Positions 1-36,000 of a stretch of DNA of 64,000 bases are shown in pieces (the stretch's first letter is position 1; every line of letters starts with the position of its first letter). The stretch is from the NCBI GenBank assembly GCA_963783575.1, contig CAWAOD010000005.1:1-64000 (forward strand). The letters are read 5' to 3'. The DNA comes from an uncultured Spirochaetota bacterium. Its GTDB lineage: Bacteria > Spirochaetota > Brevinematia > Brevinematales > JAOACQ01. The position numbers are program-made.

Positions 1-3000
1 AACGCCCAGCCTTTCAGTCGATAAAGAAAAAGGTTTATACAACTGCTTCGGATGCGGAGAGGCCGGGGACGCTTTCGATCTGGTGGAAAAGATGAAAAGC
101 TTCGATTTCAAAGAGGCTTTGAAGTTCCTCAAGGATTGGAAAGCAGCCCTTCGGCTTGGTTTCGTTCTCACCGGTTTCCGCTGATTTACCACTTGAGGCG
201 GAACCTCTTGCTGTTACTGCCCCGGATCAGGGCGGAGCAAAAAACAAACCGCCGGAGAATTCGGCCGGCGCGGTCTTAAATTCTCCGGACGGCGATAGAC
301 TCAAAGGCCTGAACACGGTAAAAAACTATTATCATAAAAGGCTTTTCGACCATCCGGAAGCCCTGAATATCTCAAGAAAAGAGGCTTAACAAACGCGGAA
401 CATTATGAACGCTTTCAGATCGGCTTTGCCGACGGGGGTTTAAACCTTGTCATTGGTGAAAATCAAAAGCAGGCTTTAACCGATGCCGGAATATTAAACG
501 AGAAAGGGCGGGAACATTTCCTGAACTGCCTTATTTTTCCAATCTTTAACGACAACAATCAAACCATCGGTTTTTATGGTCGTGATATTAATGACAGTTC
601 AGGATTCAAACACCGCTATTTAAAAGGGCCACACAGTGGCGTTTTTAATCGTAAAGCTAGTAAAGTCTATGACGAAATAATTTTAACGGAGTGTATTATT
701 GATTGTCTAAGCCTTATTGAAACCGGTTTTGAGAATGTCCAGCCGATCTATGGGACAAATGGATTTACTGAAGAACACTTGCAAACTTTGAAGGCCGACA
801 GGGTTAAAACGTTTATTCTGGCGCTGGATAATGACGAAGCCGGGACGCTTGCCGGTGAAAAGCTGAAAGAAAGCTTTATTAATGAGGGTTTCAAGGTCAA
901 AATTGTTTCTCCTTTCGGCGGTAAAGACTGGAATGAAGCCTTAAAGGCTGGCGCATTGAAAAAAGATGACCTTAAAGTCTTAATTGAACAAGCCGCTATC
1001 TTTGAAGCAGAGAAAGATATTGAAAGTGACGCGTCACACGGCCTGAAGGTTACTCAGGAAGGATTCAGTACTATATTTGCATTTACCGACATTAGCTTAC
1101 AAGGTTTCGGGAGTTAAAGAGATATTTATTACAAGCCTGAGGGTCAATATCAAAGCGGAAACGGAGACGACAGATATTTTGATAACCTTGACCTGTATTC
1201 CGCCAGGTCGAGAACAAATTACAGCTTTCAGGTTTCCCGGATTTTCAGCATAGAACCTAAGCGGATCGAAAAGGATTTGATCACAATCCTTGAATACTTT
1301 GAGGACGAACGCGAGCGGCGGGGCCGCCTGGAAAATGAGAAAAGGATCGAAGACGGAATTAACCGAAAAAGAACGGGAAGCCGGGCTTAATTTCCTGAAA
1401 AGTCCCGGTCTGTTTCAGGAGATCGTCAAAGACATGGAAACATTGGGTTATGTCGGAGAAGACTTAAACAAGCAATTGTTATACCTTTGCGCCAGTTCCC
1501 GGATACTTGACGACCCGATAAGCGTGTTGATTCTTTCTGAGTCGGCTTCAGGAAAGTCCATGCTGGTTGAGACGGTGAAGAAATTAATTCCTTCTGAAGA
1601 TGTTGTCGCCGTTACCTCTCTTTCAGACCAGGCCTTAAACTACATAAAAGACTTAATGCATAAGTTTTTGATTCTCGGTGAAGCTGTTCATTCTGATGTC
1701 ATCGAACACCAGATCAGGGAGATACTTTCAGGTAAAGAACTTTCAAGGCTTGTGACTGTGAAGGACGAGAAAACCGGAAAGATGGAATCAAAGATTGTCA
1801 GAACCCCGGTGATCGTGGCCAGCGTCATGAGTTCGACAGGTTACAGCATAAATCCCGAAAACACATCAAGATGTTTTGTCATTAATACGGATGAATCGAG
1901 GGAACAGACCCGGAAAATCCATGAGATACAACGGCAGAAATATACATTATCCCGCCATTTTGAAAAAGCTTCAGTAATTCCCGAAATCATTAAAAAACAT
2001 CAAGCCGCTCAAAGGTTACTGCGTAAGATGCTTGTCGTCAATACCTTCGGCGGTTTCCTGAACTTTCCAGACAATCTGATGAGAACACGCCGGGATAATG
2101 ACCGCTTTCTTGACCTTATCGCCTGCGTTTGTTTTCTCCGGCAGTATCAAAAGCCCGTCAAATGGGAAGGGCTGACGGAATTTATCGAGTGCGATATTGA
2201 CGACTACCGGATAGCTTACAACATAATGATTAACGGCATACTGGCTTCCACAATGCTGGAAATGTCAAAGAGCGCCCTGGAGCTTTATGAGGCTTTAAGG
2301 GATATGGCCGTAAAATTATCAAAGAAAAGCAATCTGAAACCCAATGAAGTGAATTTTACACAAAGGGAAATCCGGGAAAATACCGGCTTTGGCCAGAGCT
2401 GGATAAAGCAAAACTTAAGGGTGCTGGTTGACTTTGAATATATTTCTATCCAGAGAGGCGGGGGAGAAAGGACGAAAGGCTTTTACCGTATAAGGGAGGA
2501 TGAAGAAATCAGGAAACTTAACCTTTCAATGATCCCGACGCCGGAAGAAATACAGGAAAAGATAAAAAATACAGATTCTAAAACTGGGCAAACTGGGTAA
2601 AACTGGTCATTGTCCAGTTTATAGCTGTAAAACCAATATTATCAAGCTTTCTTAAAACTGGGCACAGTTTCCGGGAGGGAAAGGCCGGAAAAAAGAGACG
2701 AAGGAGAAAACAAAATGTCTATAGAAAACTTAATTCAGGACTTTCTATCTTACTACAAAATACGGGGTTTTAAACATCAGGGCTTGATCGTCAAAAAGAA
2801 CGCCCTGCTTTTGTTTACGGCTTACCTCCGGGAAAAGCTGAATATTACAGAACCAGAAGGCTTGAGAAGCCTGACGAAAGAAAAGTTTGAAACTTTCGCC
2901 GATTATCTCAAAACCAAATTTCTTAGTAAAGACACAATCCGTACTTATGGCCAGGTCGCTAAATGTTTTCTAATGCGGAATGATCTTCTGCCGACTGGCA

Positions 3001-33000: not shown

Positions 33001-36000
33001 GACGCCATCGAAATTGCATCTTGTAAATATCATTACAGTTAATTGAGGTAGGCGAAGATGAAATCTATTGATCCGATTGTAGAAGAAATGACGAATGCCG
33101 GGAAGAAAATACAGGAAGAATGCGGAAACGATTGGGACAAATTCGCTGAAAGGATTCAGGAGAATGAAAAGAAATTGAAGGCTGAAGGCTGGAAATTTGC
33201 CTACTTAAAACCACAGCGTAGAAAAGCCAGTTAATATGAATCAGTCGACCTATGTAATCTGCCGAAACGCTGCTTTAATACTTTTGTACACCGTGGCCAA
33301 GTCGAAGGCTATAAAAGCGAAACAAGCGGCTCTGGCCATGGAGTGTACAAAAGCGAAGCGGGGGAAAGCGGCCGCTAAAAAAGCCGCAACTCTCATGGGG
33401 TTTACAGGGAGTAGTTCCCCCAGTTCACTACAGGGGAATACTCCAAATATAGAACCAACATCTTTGCATACAGGCAATTATGCGAATGATTATGGAGCTA
33501 ATATAAATCCAATTACAGGTTCAGTAAATTATGCAAATGATTATAATGCTCCGATAAACCCGAATTATACGGATAATCCAACAAATTACAGGGACACTTC
33601 CTGGCATGGACAGGAAAGCCTTGATAAGGTAAATGATGCATATCAAGACTTTAAGAATCAATACAAAAATGGTAAAATACCTTTCAATAGTTTAACTTAT
33701 GACAGTATTAAAGACTTTGCTGATGATCATAATATGACCGATGCGGAAAGGCTTTATTTCACAGAAAGAATTGCCCATGATAATCCTGAATTTTATTCAA
33801 ATACTAAACTTGCCTATATTGGGACATTCCCAGAGTTAAAAACTCAAACATATTGTGATCGGTACGCATCTTATGTAACCAAGATATATACTGGAAATTC
33901 AGATTTGGAAGCCGCAGGTCATTGGGGTGTACCGTATGCGAATCAATATTTTCAAGATAATTCATATAATACTTATAACGTATCACATGGACAAGATATG
34001 CAAGAGATGGCAAATTTTGGTAAATTGACGTATGCTTCTGATTCAGGACATATAATTGTTATTTCACCTGGAAATGGAAAATGGTCAGAAGATATTTACA
34101 CAATAGGTGAAGAAGATATGCAAGTTTATTTACCTGCTATTGCCCAACAAGGGAGAGATAACTACTTAAATGGTTTAGGCGGAAATTATAACTTACGTAA
34201 TGCTTATAAACCAATTCAAATACCAAATATAATTTATTATAACAAATAGTGATGGAAGGAGCGAATTATTATGAAAAGATATATTTTAATATCTTTACTG
34301 ATATTATTTTGCTTAAATATAAATCTCCTATATAGCCAAAAAGTAATAAATTATCAGAGAATAATTGAATTTTCCGAAAATCAATGGGGTCATGGATTTG
34401 TTATTTCAGCAGACAATTCATTTTTAATTAGTATTTCAGAACATAGTGATAAGAAAGGGTTGAATTGGATTTATTGGTATAAAGATGGAGAAATTACAAA
34501 AAAAATTGATAACGCAATGTTTGGTTCTACAAGTCCTGATGGTAAGTATTATGCTTATATTAATAAAAAGAATGTTTACATATTTAAAAATGATGATACT
34601 CTAATTAATAAATTTGAATTTAAAGGAATGTTATACAAATATATGTGGGATTATAATTCTAATTTCATATTTACAATTGAATTAGTTAACAATCTTTATA
34701 AGATAATTAGATTTGATTTTTTAAATAATAGAAAAGAGGAGATATTAAGTTCATCAAATTATTTTTATCCAATTCCTGTAAAATCAAAAGATATTTTATA
34801 TTTATTGAAAAATTATAATTTTTCAGATAACTCCACAGAAGATTACAAAATAGTAAAATATAATATTAATACAAAAATATTCAATGAAATACATTTACCC
34901 GATGAGAATTATAATATCTTGAATTCATTTACAATATCACCAGATGAAAAATTCATTGTTTATGTAGATAAGAATGACTTAAATATGAATATTATTGAAG
35001 TTAATGAAAAAAAAGTCATCATTAGATTTAAAGTTAATGATTTTCCTGAGAGTTTTAGTTGGGAGTCAAATGATTTATTTTTCATATTTTCTATGGATAA
35101 TAGAGGTATAGATAAATTCAATATGCAAGATTATTTGAAGCCGATAGAATAAAGCTTCCCGGTTTTTTTATTTTCTCCTTTAGAGCATCCAAACCGGAGC
35201 AAAAAGGGAGGAATTCCGAGCAAAAAGCTTCGAAGTCGGAGCTCAGAGGTCGGAATTTGGAGTAAAAAGCCCCGGTGTCGAAGCTCTGAACTAGGAAACC
35301 TGAGTAAAAAGCTTCGGCTTCGAGACTCGGAACTCCGGTTTACACATTAGCAAAATCTGACGGCAAAGCGAGAGCATGAAGAAAGTAGAAAGATTTTATT
35401 CAAGCCTCGTCAGCCCCATTCCTTACAAAACTGGCAGGCTCGCCGTCTCACACTGCCAGTTTTTCCAGTCAGGGGCATTCCTCGGCTTGCGCGCTCTATT
35501 GGCGGAAGTCAGAGGCAACCGAACCCGCTGACGCTTTAACATAATTGTTCTTATGGTCAGGCCGGGGGGCGAAATCCTCCGCTCCCCAGCAGCATCTGAA
35601 GCGAATCTGAAGAAAAAGTCCAGGATTTTGGACTAATAAAAGAGACATAAAAAGGAATGGACAGAGAGGGAAATTAGGAATGTGGTTATTGGAATAAGGC
35701 GAATAAAAGAAAGGAAGAGGAATGGAAGGCAGCAAAAATATCCATATTGTCTTATTTAACTTTAATAATTTTCTTAATATTGGCATATAGGACAAGCGGC
35801 GAGACGATTTTCATGGATTCTTTGCAAACGGGCTTGTTCGAAACCGGATTGAATGGAAATAAAATCAGGTTTTTTACCAAAGTAAGCTTCGGCAGGAGTC
35901 TGGTATTTATGAGCATGGTGAGGCCGGACATGATTATATTCCTGGACTGCTGTTTCAAGATACCTTTCAAGTTCCTTAAGGTCATGAAATTTGGAACGCA

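Follow-up and report, generated by a model that had tools for sequence, protein, structure and literature searches.

Arrays of orphan toxin tips and immunity genes, resulting from the 'C-terminal displacement' of Rhs and CdiA, have been described by Jackson et al. 2009 (PMC2935791), Poole et al. 2011 (PMC3150448) and Ruhe et al. 2016 (PMC4927057). In CDI loci, integrase and transposase genes lie between displaced tips and the integration of new modules into cdiA was proposed (PMC4927057); for Rhs, homologous recombination via a circular intermediate was suggested (PMC2935791). According to the excerpts of these papers available to us, such arrays begin, like the locus analyzed here, with a full-length toxin gene, behind which displaced tips of the same orientation are lined up together with their respective immunity genes, and the junction lies at the boundary of delivery part and toxin. 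The vehicle is left open in these excerpts. In the elements analyzed here, by contrast, a full replicon goes with each displaced tip, as do a short core and either one or two Xer-like recombinases; in other organisms, there are free plasmid forms as well.

The tycheposons of Prochlorococcus (bioRxiv 10.1101/2020.12.28.424599), as far as the accessible part of the preprint goes, are similar 10-20-kb elements with a tyrosine recombinase, primase/helicase replication genes and cargo, devoid of capsid and conjugation genes, which integrate successively at one site and shove older copies deeper into the island. Hence, the tandem accretion that the initial annotation had considered new already has a precedent. 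According to the same part of the preprint, tycheposons carry one recombinase and have seven tRNA genes as targets, whereas the target here is in frame inside a protein-coding gene and the site-adjacent cargo consists of a gene fragment dependent on fusion. No tRNA genes were found within our 64-kb window.

IMEX (CTX-phi, TLC-phi) and the pdif modules of Acinetobacter use the host XerC/XerD at dif-like sites. Like our elements, they rely on Xer-type recombination at a site that is short and simple, and related copies line up in tandem, but our elements possess their own Xer-like enzymes and have toxin genes as targets. Phage-inducible chromosomal islands and satellites, about 10-15 kb in size, encode an integrase and a primase-type replicase together with a divergent repressor. 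The same combination is present here, though packaging or interference genes were not seen in the elements. A search of 2.9 million viral contigs yielded no full-length relative of the primase, and none of 561 matching phage records covered at least 80%. Bacteroidales carry recombinase-associated immunity islands (rAID). Similarly, XerC/D-like recombinase genes border accumulations of immunity genes in polyimmunity loci (Zhang et al. 2012, PMC3482391). Both resemble our locus in having such recombinase genes beside polymorphic-toxin immunity genes; in the portions of the descriptions at hand, however, one recombinase goes with many small cassettes without a replicon of their own, and fusion to a delivery gene does not appear. 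Finally, annotation tables of Leptospira plasmid replication/partition modules (pLiSL21, pDO5_1) list, as here, an HTH gene on the minus strand, ParA and one or two tyrosine recombinases, and the CHC2-Toprim primase of ~950 aa shares its C-terminal domain with the primase of our elements (29% identity over 92-95%). Unlike here, ParA/ParB follow the recombinases, and an adjacent giant toxin gene or tip was not seen in these tables.

The genome studied is a MAG with 89.85% completeness and 4.91% contamination. The window, i.e. the whole stretch of DNA analyzed, comprises positions 1-64,000 of contig C5; the remainder of the array is located on contig C15. We consider it probable that the locus consists of an Rhs polymorphic-toxin gene and a stack of integrated plasmid-like 'tip-carrier' elements which swap its tip. 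The only rhs gene of the genome (3753 aa; RHS_repeat E 3e-107) lies on C15 immediately upstream of the array start, and all 13 RHS_repeat matches fall into its frame. A T6SS sheath gene was not found in this MAG. Since both contigs end within the array, we only infer that C15 and C5 form one continuous array, on the basis of the common core, the homology of the tips and the presence of just one rhs gene.

The features of the window are:

1..2600, plus strand: primase-NTPase gene of the first, partial element, Toprim domains; truncated by the contig start, frame broken, 98.6% identical to 11925-14207 with indels at 365, 1095, 1160 and 1343
2715-3974, plus: Int1 of the first element, 419 aa, Xer-like (Phage_integrase, E 2e-32)
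3971-4987, plus: Int2 of the first element, 338 aa, Xer-like (Phage_integrase, E 3e-43)
4917..5966, plus: addiction module at the right end of the first element, PIN-like ORF (4917-5519) and DUF2442 (5712-5966), with a conserved small ORF from about 5506 (plus)
6049..6092, plus: junction 1, element-side arm GGGTTTAGAGGGAATAGA, then the 25-bp core (6068-6092)
6067..6888, plus: toxin tip 1, 273 open codons from the core, Peptidase_M23
6904..7875, plus: immunity-like exported protein, 323 aa, hydrophobic N-terminus, SH3_3
7876..9029, no strand: GC-rich non-coding region, conserved block 8539-9008, arms of the 27-bp inverted repeat at 8733-8752 and 8870-8888; direct repeat GATATCTAAACGGCAAT at 8554 and 8981
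9030-9497, minus: PIN toxin (Pfam)
9430-9627, minus: antitoxin-like ORF, 65 aa
9722-10072, minus: HTH_3 repressor (Pfam)
10429-10707, plus: 92-aa protein
10718-11479, plus: ParA (Pfam)
11481-14207, plus: primase-NTPase, 908 aa (Pfam)
14322-15581, plus: Int1, second copy
15578-16594, plus: Int2, second copy; as in this Int1, catalytic residues align with XerD
16524..17573, plus: PIN-like ORF and DUF2442 module (Pfam)
17656..17699, plus: junction 2, element-side arm, then core (17675-17699)
17674-18381, plus: putative toxin tip 2, 235 open codons
18384-18995, plus: exported immunity-like protein, 203 aa
19000..19471, minus: GC block, second copy, inverted
19472-21496 and 21518-23814, plus: group II introns with RT/maturase ORFs
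23821..24423, minus: uncharacterized 200-aa ORF between the two inverted GC blocks; 60-62% homologue at the same place in genome G003
24475..24906, no strand: GC block of the third element, arms 24630-24649 and 24768-24786
24932-25498, minus: PIN (Pfam)
25615-26037, minus: HTH repressor, third element (Pfam)
from 26300, plus: 91-aa protein, third element
26585-27343, plus: ParA, third element (Pfam)
27345-30083, plus: primase-NTPase, 912 aa, third element (Pfam)
30246-31505, plus: Int1, third element (Pfam)
31502-32509, plus: Int2, third element (Pfam)
32532-32801 and 32785-33042, plus: YefM and YoeB (Pfam)
33058-33234, plus: conserved 58-aa ORF; 33052-33202 is 96% identical to 5500-5650 (blastn)
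33398..33441, plus: junction 3, element-side arm, then core (33417-33441)
33416-34249, plus: putative last displaced toxin tip, 277 open codons, 71% identical to the present Rhs-fused tip
34271-35152, plus: exported immunity-like protein, 293 aa
35184..37027, no strand: array end, 42-nt tandem repeats at 35184-35331
35536-35554: remnant of one GC-block arm
35774-37027, minus: IS with rve transposase
from about 38.7 kb onward: ordinary chromosomal genes

Three co-oriented gene sets occupy 1-35.4 kb of the window, and three more, in reverse orientation, were detected in 1-35 kb of C15. At the contig ends, C5 1-340 and C15 332-2 represent one and the same section of the primase gene but are only 76.5% identical and therefore belong to different copies. 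Thus, there are six distinct primase genes. The repeated unit of the initial annotation was confirmed. In blastn searches against the whole genome, the six units were 67-98.6% similar. The closest pair, 318-6093 (copy A) and 11925-17700 (copy B), is 98.633% identical over 5778 bp; 10537-13855 and 26408-29716 share 91.3%, integrase pairs 81.2% within C5 and 78-84% in comparison with C15, and the remaining C15 matches to window units 67-80%. The identities reported before for unit cores (67-91%, one pair 98.6%) and integrase pairs (78-84%) were thereby reproduced. It is almost certainly not the case that assembly falsely expanded one or two elements or joined DNA of several strains, even though the genome is a MAG, both contigs stop inside the repeat, one copy pair is 98.6% alike and four single-base indels, either real decay or long-read errors, break the primase frame of copy A relative to copy B. 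Copies are 9-33% apart and differ in tips, TA modules and introns, and similarly built arrays are present in isolates, on complete chromosomes as well as plasmids.

By Pfam, the units contain an HTH_3 repressor on the minus strand, ParA (AAA_31, E 1e-43), in the window a DnaG-type primase of 908-912 aa (Zn_ribbon_DnaG, DNAG_N, Toprim_2) and, per window unit, two Phage_integrase genes (419 aa and 335-338 aa). The C-terminal half of the primase-NTPase 11481-14207 harbors a Walker-A-like SESASGKS motif. In Int1 and Int2, the catalytic residues R, K, H, R, H and Y align with XerD, so that both recombinases have a complete catalytic set. Cargo domains of the window are PIN, YefM/YoeB, Peptidase_M23 with SH3_3, and DUF2442; elsewhere in the array, HATPase_c_3 with SduA_C, Radical_SAM and DUF4258 were found, with PADLOC scores of 64.7 bits for REase_II, 25.6 bits for SduA and 43.1 bits for pVip. 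These assignments agree with the previous ones. Group II introns had been noted on C15 and are present in the window as well, where both are secondary insertions.

The 25-bp core, CCCCCAGTTCAnnAnnGGnGAAT(A/G)C, is located inside rhs at C15 37684, ~276 codons ahead of the stop, and recurs after each Int1-Int2-TA block (window 6068, 17675, 33417; C15 25289, 5693). All five element cores have the left arm GGGTYTASAGGGAR in common; in rhs, coding sequence takes its place. Past the core, the toxin-tip frame is open in six of six copies, with a stop 172-277 codons on. The identity of copies A and B ends at the core (6093), beyond which the two differ, one having an M23 tip and the other an unrelated one, and the homology between the Rhs C-terminus and the tips begins there too. 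Because of the core recurrence, the open tip frames and this breakpoint, we place the limits of a unit at the cores, so that it runs from core to core: core, tip, immunity gene, GC block, HTH (minus strand), 92-aa protein, ParA, primase-NTPase, two Xer-like recombinases, TA, core. As circles, the elements of this locus would measure 11.6-19.6 kb. The earlier unit borders were consequently in the wrong register, with the adjoining rhs target overlooked, and cargo ascribed to the upstream unit is separated from it by the core. The pair of 337 and 290 aa listed as unknowns comprises an Rhs toxin tip, 71-84% identical to the final 276 residues of the Rhs protein, and an immunity-like protein. Tips of this family (n=3) are 71-84% identical to one another, their neighbor proteins 29-66%. 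Tip 2 gave a weak lead to LAS-type peptidases in Atlas, and PDB sequence searches with the non-M23 toxin/immunity pairs returned no matches. Their position suggests toxin and immunity roles for these pairs, and likewise an immunity role for the 323-aa SH3_3 protein. The junction in this genome differs from the canonical Rhs DPxGL motif.

The GC-rich non-coding blocks (GC 0.45-0.52 versus 0.369 for the contig) can be aligned between units as stated initially, but their length is not uniformly ~450 bp: it ranges from 0.45 to 1.4 kb, and in two elements the block is doubled in inverted orientation. With its 27-bp inverted repeat, the block is a probable origin or partition site. Originally, element ends were sought near this block, with units opening with the HTH repressor and closing with the GC block, owning their downstream cargo and integrating beside older copies. 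The conservation of the block, the regular recurrence of the gene order from HTH to cargo and a 17-nt direct repeat flanking the block at two window junctions and once on C15 fit such a structure, which we nevertheless regard as quite improbable, for the repeat is missing from the other junctions and the rhs side, identity breaks off at the core between TA and tip, away from the GC block, and the 'cargo' shows homology to the Rhs C-terminus starting with the core. Moreover, the tip directly follows the integrase/TA end in circular and plasmid forms, and a tandem unit of Enterobacter begins within cdiA.

The same core-tip logic holds in other spirochaetes, at Enterobacter cdiA and in E. coli vgrG-rhs arrays. 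Genome G064 has an intact paralogue (empty site) and a second one split at the equivalent base by two copies of a 12.1-kb element, with the old tip (100% identical) displaced by 24 kb; its cores are similar but not identical (at most 15 imperfect bp). G003 shares arm and core with this genome and has an orthologous Rhs gene upstream, with merely diverged sequence at the core position. G001 repeats a 67-bp Rhs core-end segment behind each of two integrase pairs. On an Enterobacter plasmid, a 7,685-bp unit is present in two tandem copies at cdiA; the common core of 13 bp encodes VENN. In E. coli EC77, four or more units lie downstream of vgrG-rhs, with seven Rhs core-end motifs on the plus and none on the minus strand. 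In P. aeruginosa, Paraburkholderia, Janthinobacterium, Providencia and Salmonella plasmids, the module also follows giant genes, of the TPS, FG-GAP or invasin type; a giant gene was upstream in six of nine annotated contexts examined. Among the fetched loci, only 7 of 39 testable integrase runs had an Rhs motif within 2.5 kb downstream, and for many members of the family the target may be a different one or absent.

Free forms were found too. Lonsdalea has a complete 11,289-bp plasmid with two start-less Rhs tips. In two of 80 contigs tested, both metagenomic, the ends overlapped by exactly the k-mer length, giving circles of 9,290 and 9,777 bp, although collapsed tandem copies can also generate such contigs; both contain start-less Rhs tips, and the frame after Int2 starts within the Rhs core-end motif. 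On Leptospira plasmids, the module with ParA/ParB occurs without a giant gene upstream.

These data also bear on a second alternative, in which tips are displaced by homologous recombination through a short conserved segment, the elements are trapped plasmids and the Xer-like genes only resolve multimers, the classical role of Xer-type recombinases. The segments of G001 (67 bp) and E. coli are indeed long enough for RecA-dependent recombination, the Leptospira plasmids lack a nearby toxin gene, and the circular intermediate proposed for Rhs would fit (PMC2935791, in the excerpt available). We consider this rather unlikely, since identity amounts to just 13 bp in Enterobacter and 25 bp in this genome and does not exceed 15 imperfect bp in G064, the recombinase genes invariably lie directly 5' of the core in the loci compared, and the conserved element-side arm bears no relation to the target.

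According to the preferred explanation, tip exchange by integrating elements, the element circle would begin at the attachment core, with a start-less toxin tip in frame 3' of it, followed by an exported immunity-like gene, at times extra defence cargo, the GC-rich block and the divergent repressor. The 92-aa protein, ParA and the DnaG-type primase fused to a P-loop NTPase would form the replicon, which may replicate from the GC block, and the two recombinases with a toxin-antitoxin module the right end. Both enzymes presumably act in catalysis, joining the element core to the identical sequence at the boundary of delivery part and toxin tip in rhs. Thereby, the incoming tip would be fused to Rhs, while the old tip and its putative immunity gene would move downstream and be retained; repeated rounds would yield the array. 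If any two cores recombined with each other, a single element or several could be excised and an older tip be placed under Rhs again.

Of the initial overall reading, the existence of a widespread family of plasmid-like elements with recombinase genes is supported, as is its tandem pile-up with toxin, TA and defence genes as load, in contrast to the proposed ends and cargo ownership. The novelty appears to lie in the vehicle and the in-frame target that it uses; our literature search found no description of such a tip-carrying vehicle. Each element seems to have plugged a new tip onto the toxin gene and shifted the older one downstream. If true, this would explain how such toxins keep exchanging their warheads.

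The window contains three co-oriented copies of one gene set, which comprises:

HTH_3 repressor gene, minus strand
gene of a 91-92-aa protein
ParA gene
DnaG-type primase gene (908-912 aa)
two adjacent Phage_integrase genes (Int1, Int2)
toxin-antitoxin (TA) gene pair
two variable ORFs
GC-rich non-coding stretch (GC block)

Comparison with the whole 18-contig genome by blastn revealed that positions 318-6093 correspond to 11925-17700 at 98.633% identity (copies A and B) and positions 10537-13855 to 26408-29716 at 91.3%, while the integrase pairs are 78-84% alike between units. Three further units, in reverse orientation and with 67-84% similarity, occupy the first 35 kb of C15, a second contig of the genome. 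The repeated units described in the initial annotation are thus real, three in the window and three on C15, and its cargo calls were reproduced, even to the bit scores. C5, the contig of the window, and C15 both end within a primase gene and, since the overlapping parts are only 76.5% alike, the six copies are different ones. The first primase copy (window 1-2600) differs from copy B by four single-base indels, which are possibly long-read errors. The source genome is a metagenome-assembled genome (MAG), in which the arrays of C15 and C5 presumably form a single locus, with the rhs gene on C15 outside the window.

In array orientation, the end of C15 opens with an ORF of 3753 aa that is rich in RHS repeats (RHS_repeat E 3e-107). 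It is the only rhs gene of the genome, as all 13 RHS_repeat matches lie within this one frame, and it is located upstream of the C-terminal toxin parts (tips) of the array and oriented like them. DNA alignments demonstrated that the homology between rhs and the tips starts at a 25-bp core, CCCCCAGTTCAnnAnnGGnGAAT(A/G)C, which a genome-wide pattern search detected in rhs (one copy) and behind every Int1-Int2-TA block (one copy each), the latter at the following positions:

C15, 25289
C15, 5693
window, 6068
window, 17675
window, 33417

To the left of the core, the five element copies have the arm GGGTYTASAGGGAR in common, while rhs has Rhs coding sequence there instead. The Rhs reading frame stays open for 172-277 codons past the core in all six copies; past junction 1 it leads into an M23 peptidase ORF, past junction 2 into a 194-aa ORF and elsewhere into the 337-aa ORFs. 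The near-identical stretch of A and B stops at 6093/17700, which is the end of the core, and is followed by unrelated tips. The A/B identity stops and the homology to rhs starts at the core, which places the recombination site within rhs and, in the elements, between the TA module and the ORF of the toxin. Judged from these sequences, the true element would extend from core to core. It had been proposed that the unit borders lie near the GC block and that the cargo belongs to the upstream unit, but both the breakpoints and the start of homology are at the core. The canonical Rhs core-end motif PxxxxDPxGL does not occur at the junction of this genome, which reads PPSS..GN approximately 276 codons from the stop; it is present at the boundary in the spirochaete genome G001, the fetched loci L003 and L024, Lonsdalea and E. 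coli. An ORF of 58 aa with no family match was noticed at window 33058-33234 (equivalent to 5500-5650 and 17107-17257). Its DNA is 96% identical between elements whose neighboring genes are only about 80% alike, and it is a candidate for a recombination accessory factor or an antitoxin.

The pair of 337-aa and 290-aa proteins which had been listed as unknowns of two units is indeed present, but the 337-aa protein can now be assigned: in the last window unit it is 71% identical to the last 276 residues of the Rhs protein, and a second copy on C15 is 84% identical to the Rhs end. Every tip is followed by an exported-looking ORF with a hydrophobic N-terminus. While the three tips of the same family are 71-84% identical, the neighboring proteins share only 29-66% identity, a pattern expected of toxin/immunity pairs. 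The toxin and immunity roles of the pairs other than M23 are putative. A PDB sequence search with two tips gave no match, and the ESM Atlas yielded weak leads without evidential weight, a Tae4-family amidase (rank 22, score 0.90) and Peptidase_M74/Extensin-like_C (0.85). After the last tip and its partner, the array ends with tandem repeats, a remnant of a GC-block arm and an IS, followed by ordinary chromosomal genes. The tandem repeats comprise four 42-nt copies at window 35184-35331, after the last immunity-like gene; beyond the IS, an inverted repeat with perfect 31-nt arms and a 62-nt spacer is located at 37568-37691.

Relatives of the primase are numerous, with 744 proteins passing E 0.001 among 7999 candidates scored. 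The C-terminal half of the protein contains a Walker-A-like motif. Of 401 sampled Spirochaetota genomes, 29 encode the C-terminal domain, several of them in two to four copies 7-15 kb apart. On the complete Spirochaetia chromosome G001, two units lie behind a 3440-aa Rhs gene, and each integrase pair is immediately followed by a repeat (94-95.5%) of a 67-bp segment coding for the canonical Rhs core end. The array flanks of the MAG and G001 revealed no synteny beyond a weak (22.7%) match between the Rhs proteins and a 28% transposase match. In G003, which belongs to the same genus as the MAG, arm and core are as in the MAG, and the Rhs orthologue lies upstream of one element, with the corresponding place in the orthologue diverged. 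The genome G064 contains two giant-gene paralogues with 97.7% similarity over 6.3 kb. While one of them is intact, the second is broken at the equivalent base by two 12.1-kb HTH/primase/integrase/ParA/ParB-like copies that bring an M23 tip, and the original tip, 100% identical to that of the intact paralogue, is found 24 kb downstream. The cores of G064 are similar but not identical. Giant genes of G356 contain a pre-toxin HINT domain. In another spirochaete (G347:C5:1-28000; L108, L109), four tandem units of about 8 kb, each with HTH (minus strand), primase, one integrase and an ORF of about 460 aa, are located at the contig start; these ORFs had no Pfam match, and a giant gene was not seen in the 28-kb stretch.

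Beyond the phylum, 32 plasmid records contain full-length primase relatives (29-34% identity, coverage above 80%), and ten of these records, nine annotated and one without annotation, were inspected for gene context. On six of the nine annotated plasmids, a giant gene of the two-partner-secretion, FG-GAP or invasin type and a small ORF immediately precede a module of HTH (minus strand), primase and XerC, often with a TA pair; behind the module come short toxin-like and immunity ORFs, several of them in tandem. Two Leptospira plasmids contain the module and ParA/ParB without a giant gene, and the ninth annotated record is the free Lonsdalea plasmid described below. The Enterobacter plasmid pJBIWA003_2 harbors a 7,685-bp unit twice with 100% identity; its start is within cdiA, 837 nt from the end of that gene. 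All that the left, middle and right junctions share is a 13-bp sequence encoding VENN. Relatives of the Enterobacter primase-XerC DNA occur in 60 of 5426 complete E. coli genomes, at a median of four places per genome. In E. coli EC77 (L114, chromosome 1639459-1682149), at least four SymE/HTH/primase/XerC units (SymE and HTH on the minus strand), several of them frameshifted, lie behind a vgrG-rhs pair, and a fragment of the Rhs core end follows each unit, with seven motif matches on the plus strand and none on the minus strand. The short junction pieces of EC77 are annotated by PGAP as partial RHS core fragments, and an ISAs1-type element also resides in this array.

Free forms of the elements were encountered as well. 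A complete 11,289-bp plasmid of Lonsdalea populi N-5-1 carries one intact and one decayed unit together with two toxin ORFs, one for HNH and one for EndoNS, the latter accompanied by an immunity gene of the NTF2 type. Traced upstream as far as the preceding stop codon, both toxin frames begin with the Rhs core-end motif and have no start codon before it. A VENN-type motif was sought on this plasmid and not found, the tips carrying the Rhs motif instead. Two of 80 contigs tested overlap at their ends by exactly the k-mer length of the assembler and so yield circles of 9,290 and 9,777 bp, in which HTH (minus strand), small protein, ParA, primase, Int1 and Int2 succeed one another and the frame after Int2 starts within the Rhs core-end motif; these contigs could instead stem from collapsed tandem copies. 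Among the 39 integrase runs of all fetched loci for which sufficient DNA was available downstream, 7 have the Rhs motif within 2.5 kb on that side, and none of the 39 has it on the opposite strand. Since 32 runs are without it, other targets or a plain plasmid life are likely for many members. Assemblies tend to break at the attachment side, 32 of 71 integrase runs in loci L003-L095 lying no more than 400 bp from the end of the available DNA. Relaxase, capsid and packaging genes were not seen in the elements, and PHROGs named only the regulator, ParA, primase and integrases. Viral collections contained no full-length primase relative, and a scan of viral contigs gave only two weak zinc-ribbon matches.

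Int1 and Int2 align with the XerD chains 1a0p and 5dcf, and the catalytic R-K-H-R-H-Y set and the two-domain build are kept. The best-scoring NCBIfam models are Xer, with 235 bits for Int2 and 145 bits for Int1, which is below the equivalog cut-off (329.6 bits cited for Int2). The element-encoded recombinases probably join the arm and core of the element with the matching site in the toxin gene. Alternatively, RecA-dependent homologous recombination at the core could produce the same joints, and the shared segments of 67 bp and longer in G001 and E. coli leave room for it. Site-specific recombination is favored because the shared identity is otherwise short (13 bp, 25 bp, or at most 15 imperfect bp), because the recombinase genes invariably adjoin the core and because the conserved arm on the element side is unrelated to the target. 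Under site-specific recombination, excision and tip switching would also be expected. In a freshwater-sediment metagenome run, a proportion of 0.05 of the sampled words was present, and its contigs were short fragments of relatives without an informative joint.

Within the GC block lie the 27-bp arms of an inverted repeat, separated by about 120 nt, and a TTGACG box that resembles a promoter element. RNAalifold also recovered the long inverted repeat, with three positions changed on both arms together in two of six sequences; an RNA structure and a palindrome for DNA/protein binding fit these paired changes equally well. At gathering thresholds, Rfam matched only group II introns in all 64 kb, and nothing in the GC block. 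The block is probably an origin or partition site of elements that we infer to replicate. A 17-nt direct repeat, GATATCTAAACGGCAAT, brackets the GC block of about 400 bp at three junctions, with four occurrences in the window where 0.25 would be expected. A role as att site was ruled out for the repeat, since it occurs at these three junctions only and is absent from the rhs side. In two elements with extra cargo, a second, inverted GC block is present with accessory genes between the blocks. The window contains two group II introns; these and the introns of C15 are situated inside or adjoining GC blocks. The features are:

window 8554/8981, 17-nt repeat pair
window 24490/24879, 17-nt repeat pair
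C15 16011/13698, 17-nt repeat pair
window 19000-19471 and 24475-24906, inverted GC-block pair with a 200-aa ORF between
C15 22533-22820, inverted GC block, with radical SAM and HATPase/Shedu-like genes between the inverted blocks
window 19472-21496, group II intron
window 21518-23814, group II intron
C15 20186-17890, group II intron
C15 15566-13877, group II intron

The first window intron has 99.9% identical copies on contigs C14 and C9, and one C15 intron splits the GC block between its two 17-nt repeats.

The array agrees with a Rhs polymorphic toxin locus with displaced (orphan) tips in having a full-length rhs gene upstream, oriented like the tips, and a junction sequence that is common and in frame in six of six copies; the canonical core-end motif is absent from the junction. 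IMEX have no recombinase of their own and use the dif site, whereas each unit here has two recombinase genes and the site is inside rhs. Tycheposons target tRNA/tmRNA genes and leave partial tRNA copies between elements, whereas ARAGORN found no such gene in the 64 kb. Integrons combine one integrase and attI with promoter-less attC cassettes lacking a replicon; here, recombinases, primase and ParA are present in every unit. PICI-type satellites possess packaging or phage-interference genes and occur in virus particles, while PHROGs detected no such genes here and viral collections held no full-length relative. RIT (three recombinases), Tn554 (TnpA/TnpB/TnpC) and SE (intA-tfp-intB-srap) would differ by description from the array, which has only two adjacent recombinases, and the only signal related to these multi-recombinase families was a weak NCBIfam match to GmtY. 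The tandem-accretion mode, earlier thought to be new, is already described for tycheposons (bioRxiv 10.1101/2020.12.28.424599).

C-terminal displacement and orphan arrays are likewise well known (PMC2935791, PMC4927057). It has been proposed since 2009 that a circle with a new tip recombines into the toxin gene and displaces the old tip (PMC2935791). Ruhe et al. reported integrase and transposase genes between CDI orphans and proposed that new modules integrate into cdiA (PMC4927057), and Zhang et al. noted XerC/D genes beside polyimmunity loci (PMC3482391). The present finding combines known kinds, an integrative plasmid and toxin-tip displacement. In a search of openly available article text, neither a primase/Xer replicon as tip vehicle nor VENN or the Rhs core end as attachment site of such a replicon was found. 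To our knowledge, no vehicle has so far been found for circle-borne tip displacement. We see an even chance that the HTH-primase-Xer elements are a cross-phylum superfamily of self-replicating tip-carrier plasmids and represent the vehicle that has long been postulated for C-terminal displacement in polymorphic toxins, Rhs and CdiA among them, that VENN and the Rhs core end double as att sites for the element recombinases, and that the arrays are a recombinase-driven, reversible library which allows the toxin to be switched while all earlier immunities are kept.

Polymorphic toxins such as Rhs, CdiA and their relatives decide which bacterial strains coexist, and their tips are among the fastest-changing genes known. 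The anatomy of the elements supplies a concrete and testable vehicle with its own replicon, its own recombinases, a defined 13-25 bp core inside the toxin gene and free plasmid forms. Because relatives reside behind vgrG-rhs in E. coli and, on isolate plasmids, behind cdiA, standard laboratory methods suffice to test the model, and it is of high interest since a question open since 2009 becomes directly testable, E. coli included. If true, the model would also explain in terms of the DNA why VENN and the Rhs core end are conserved.
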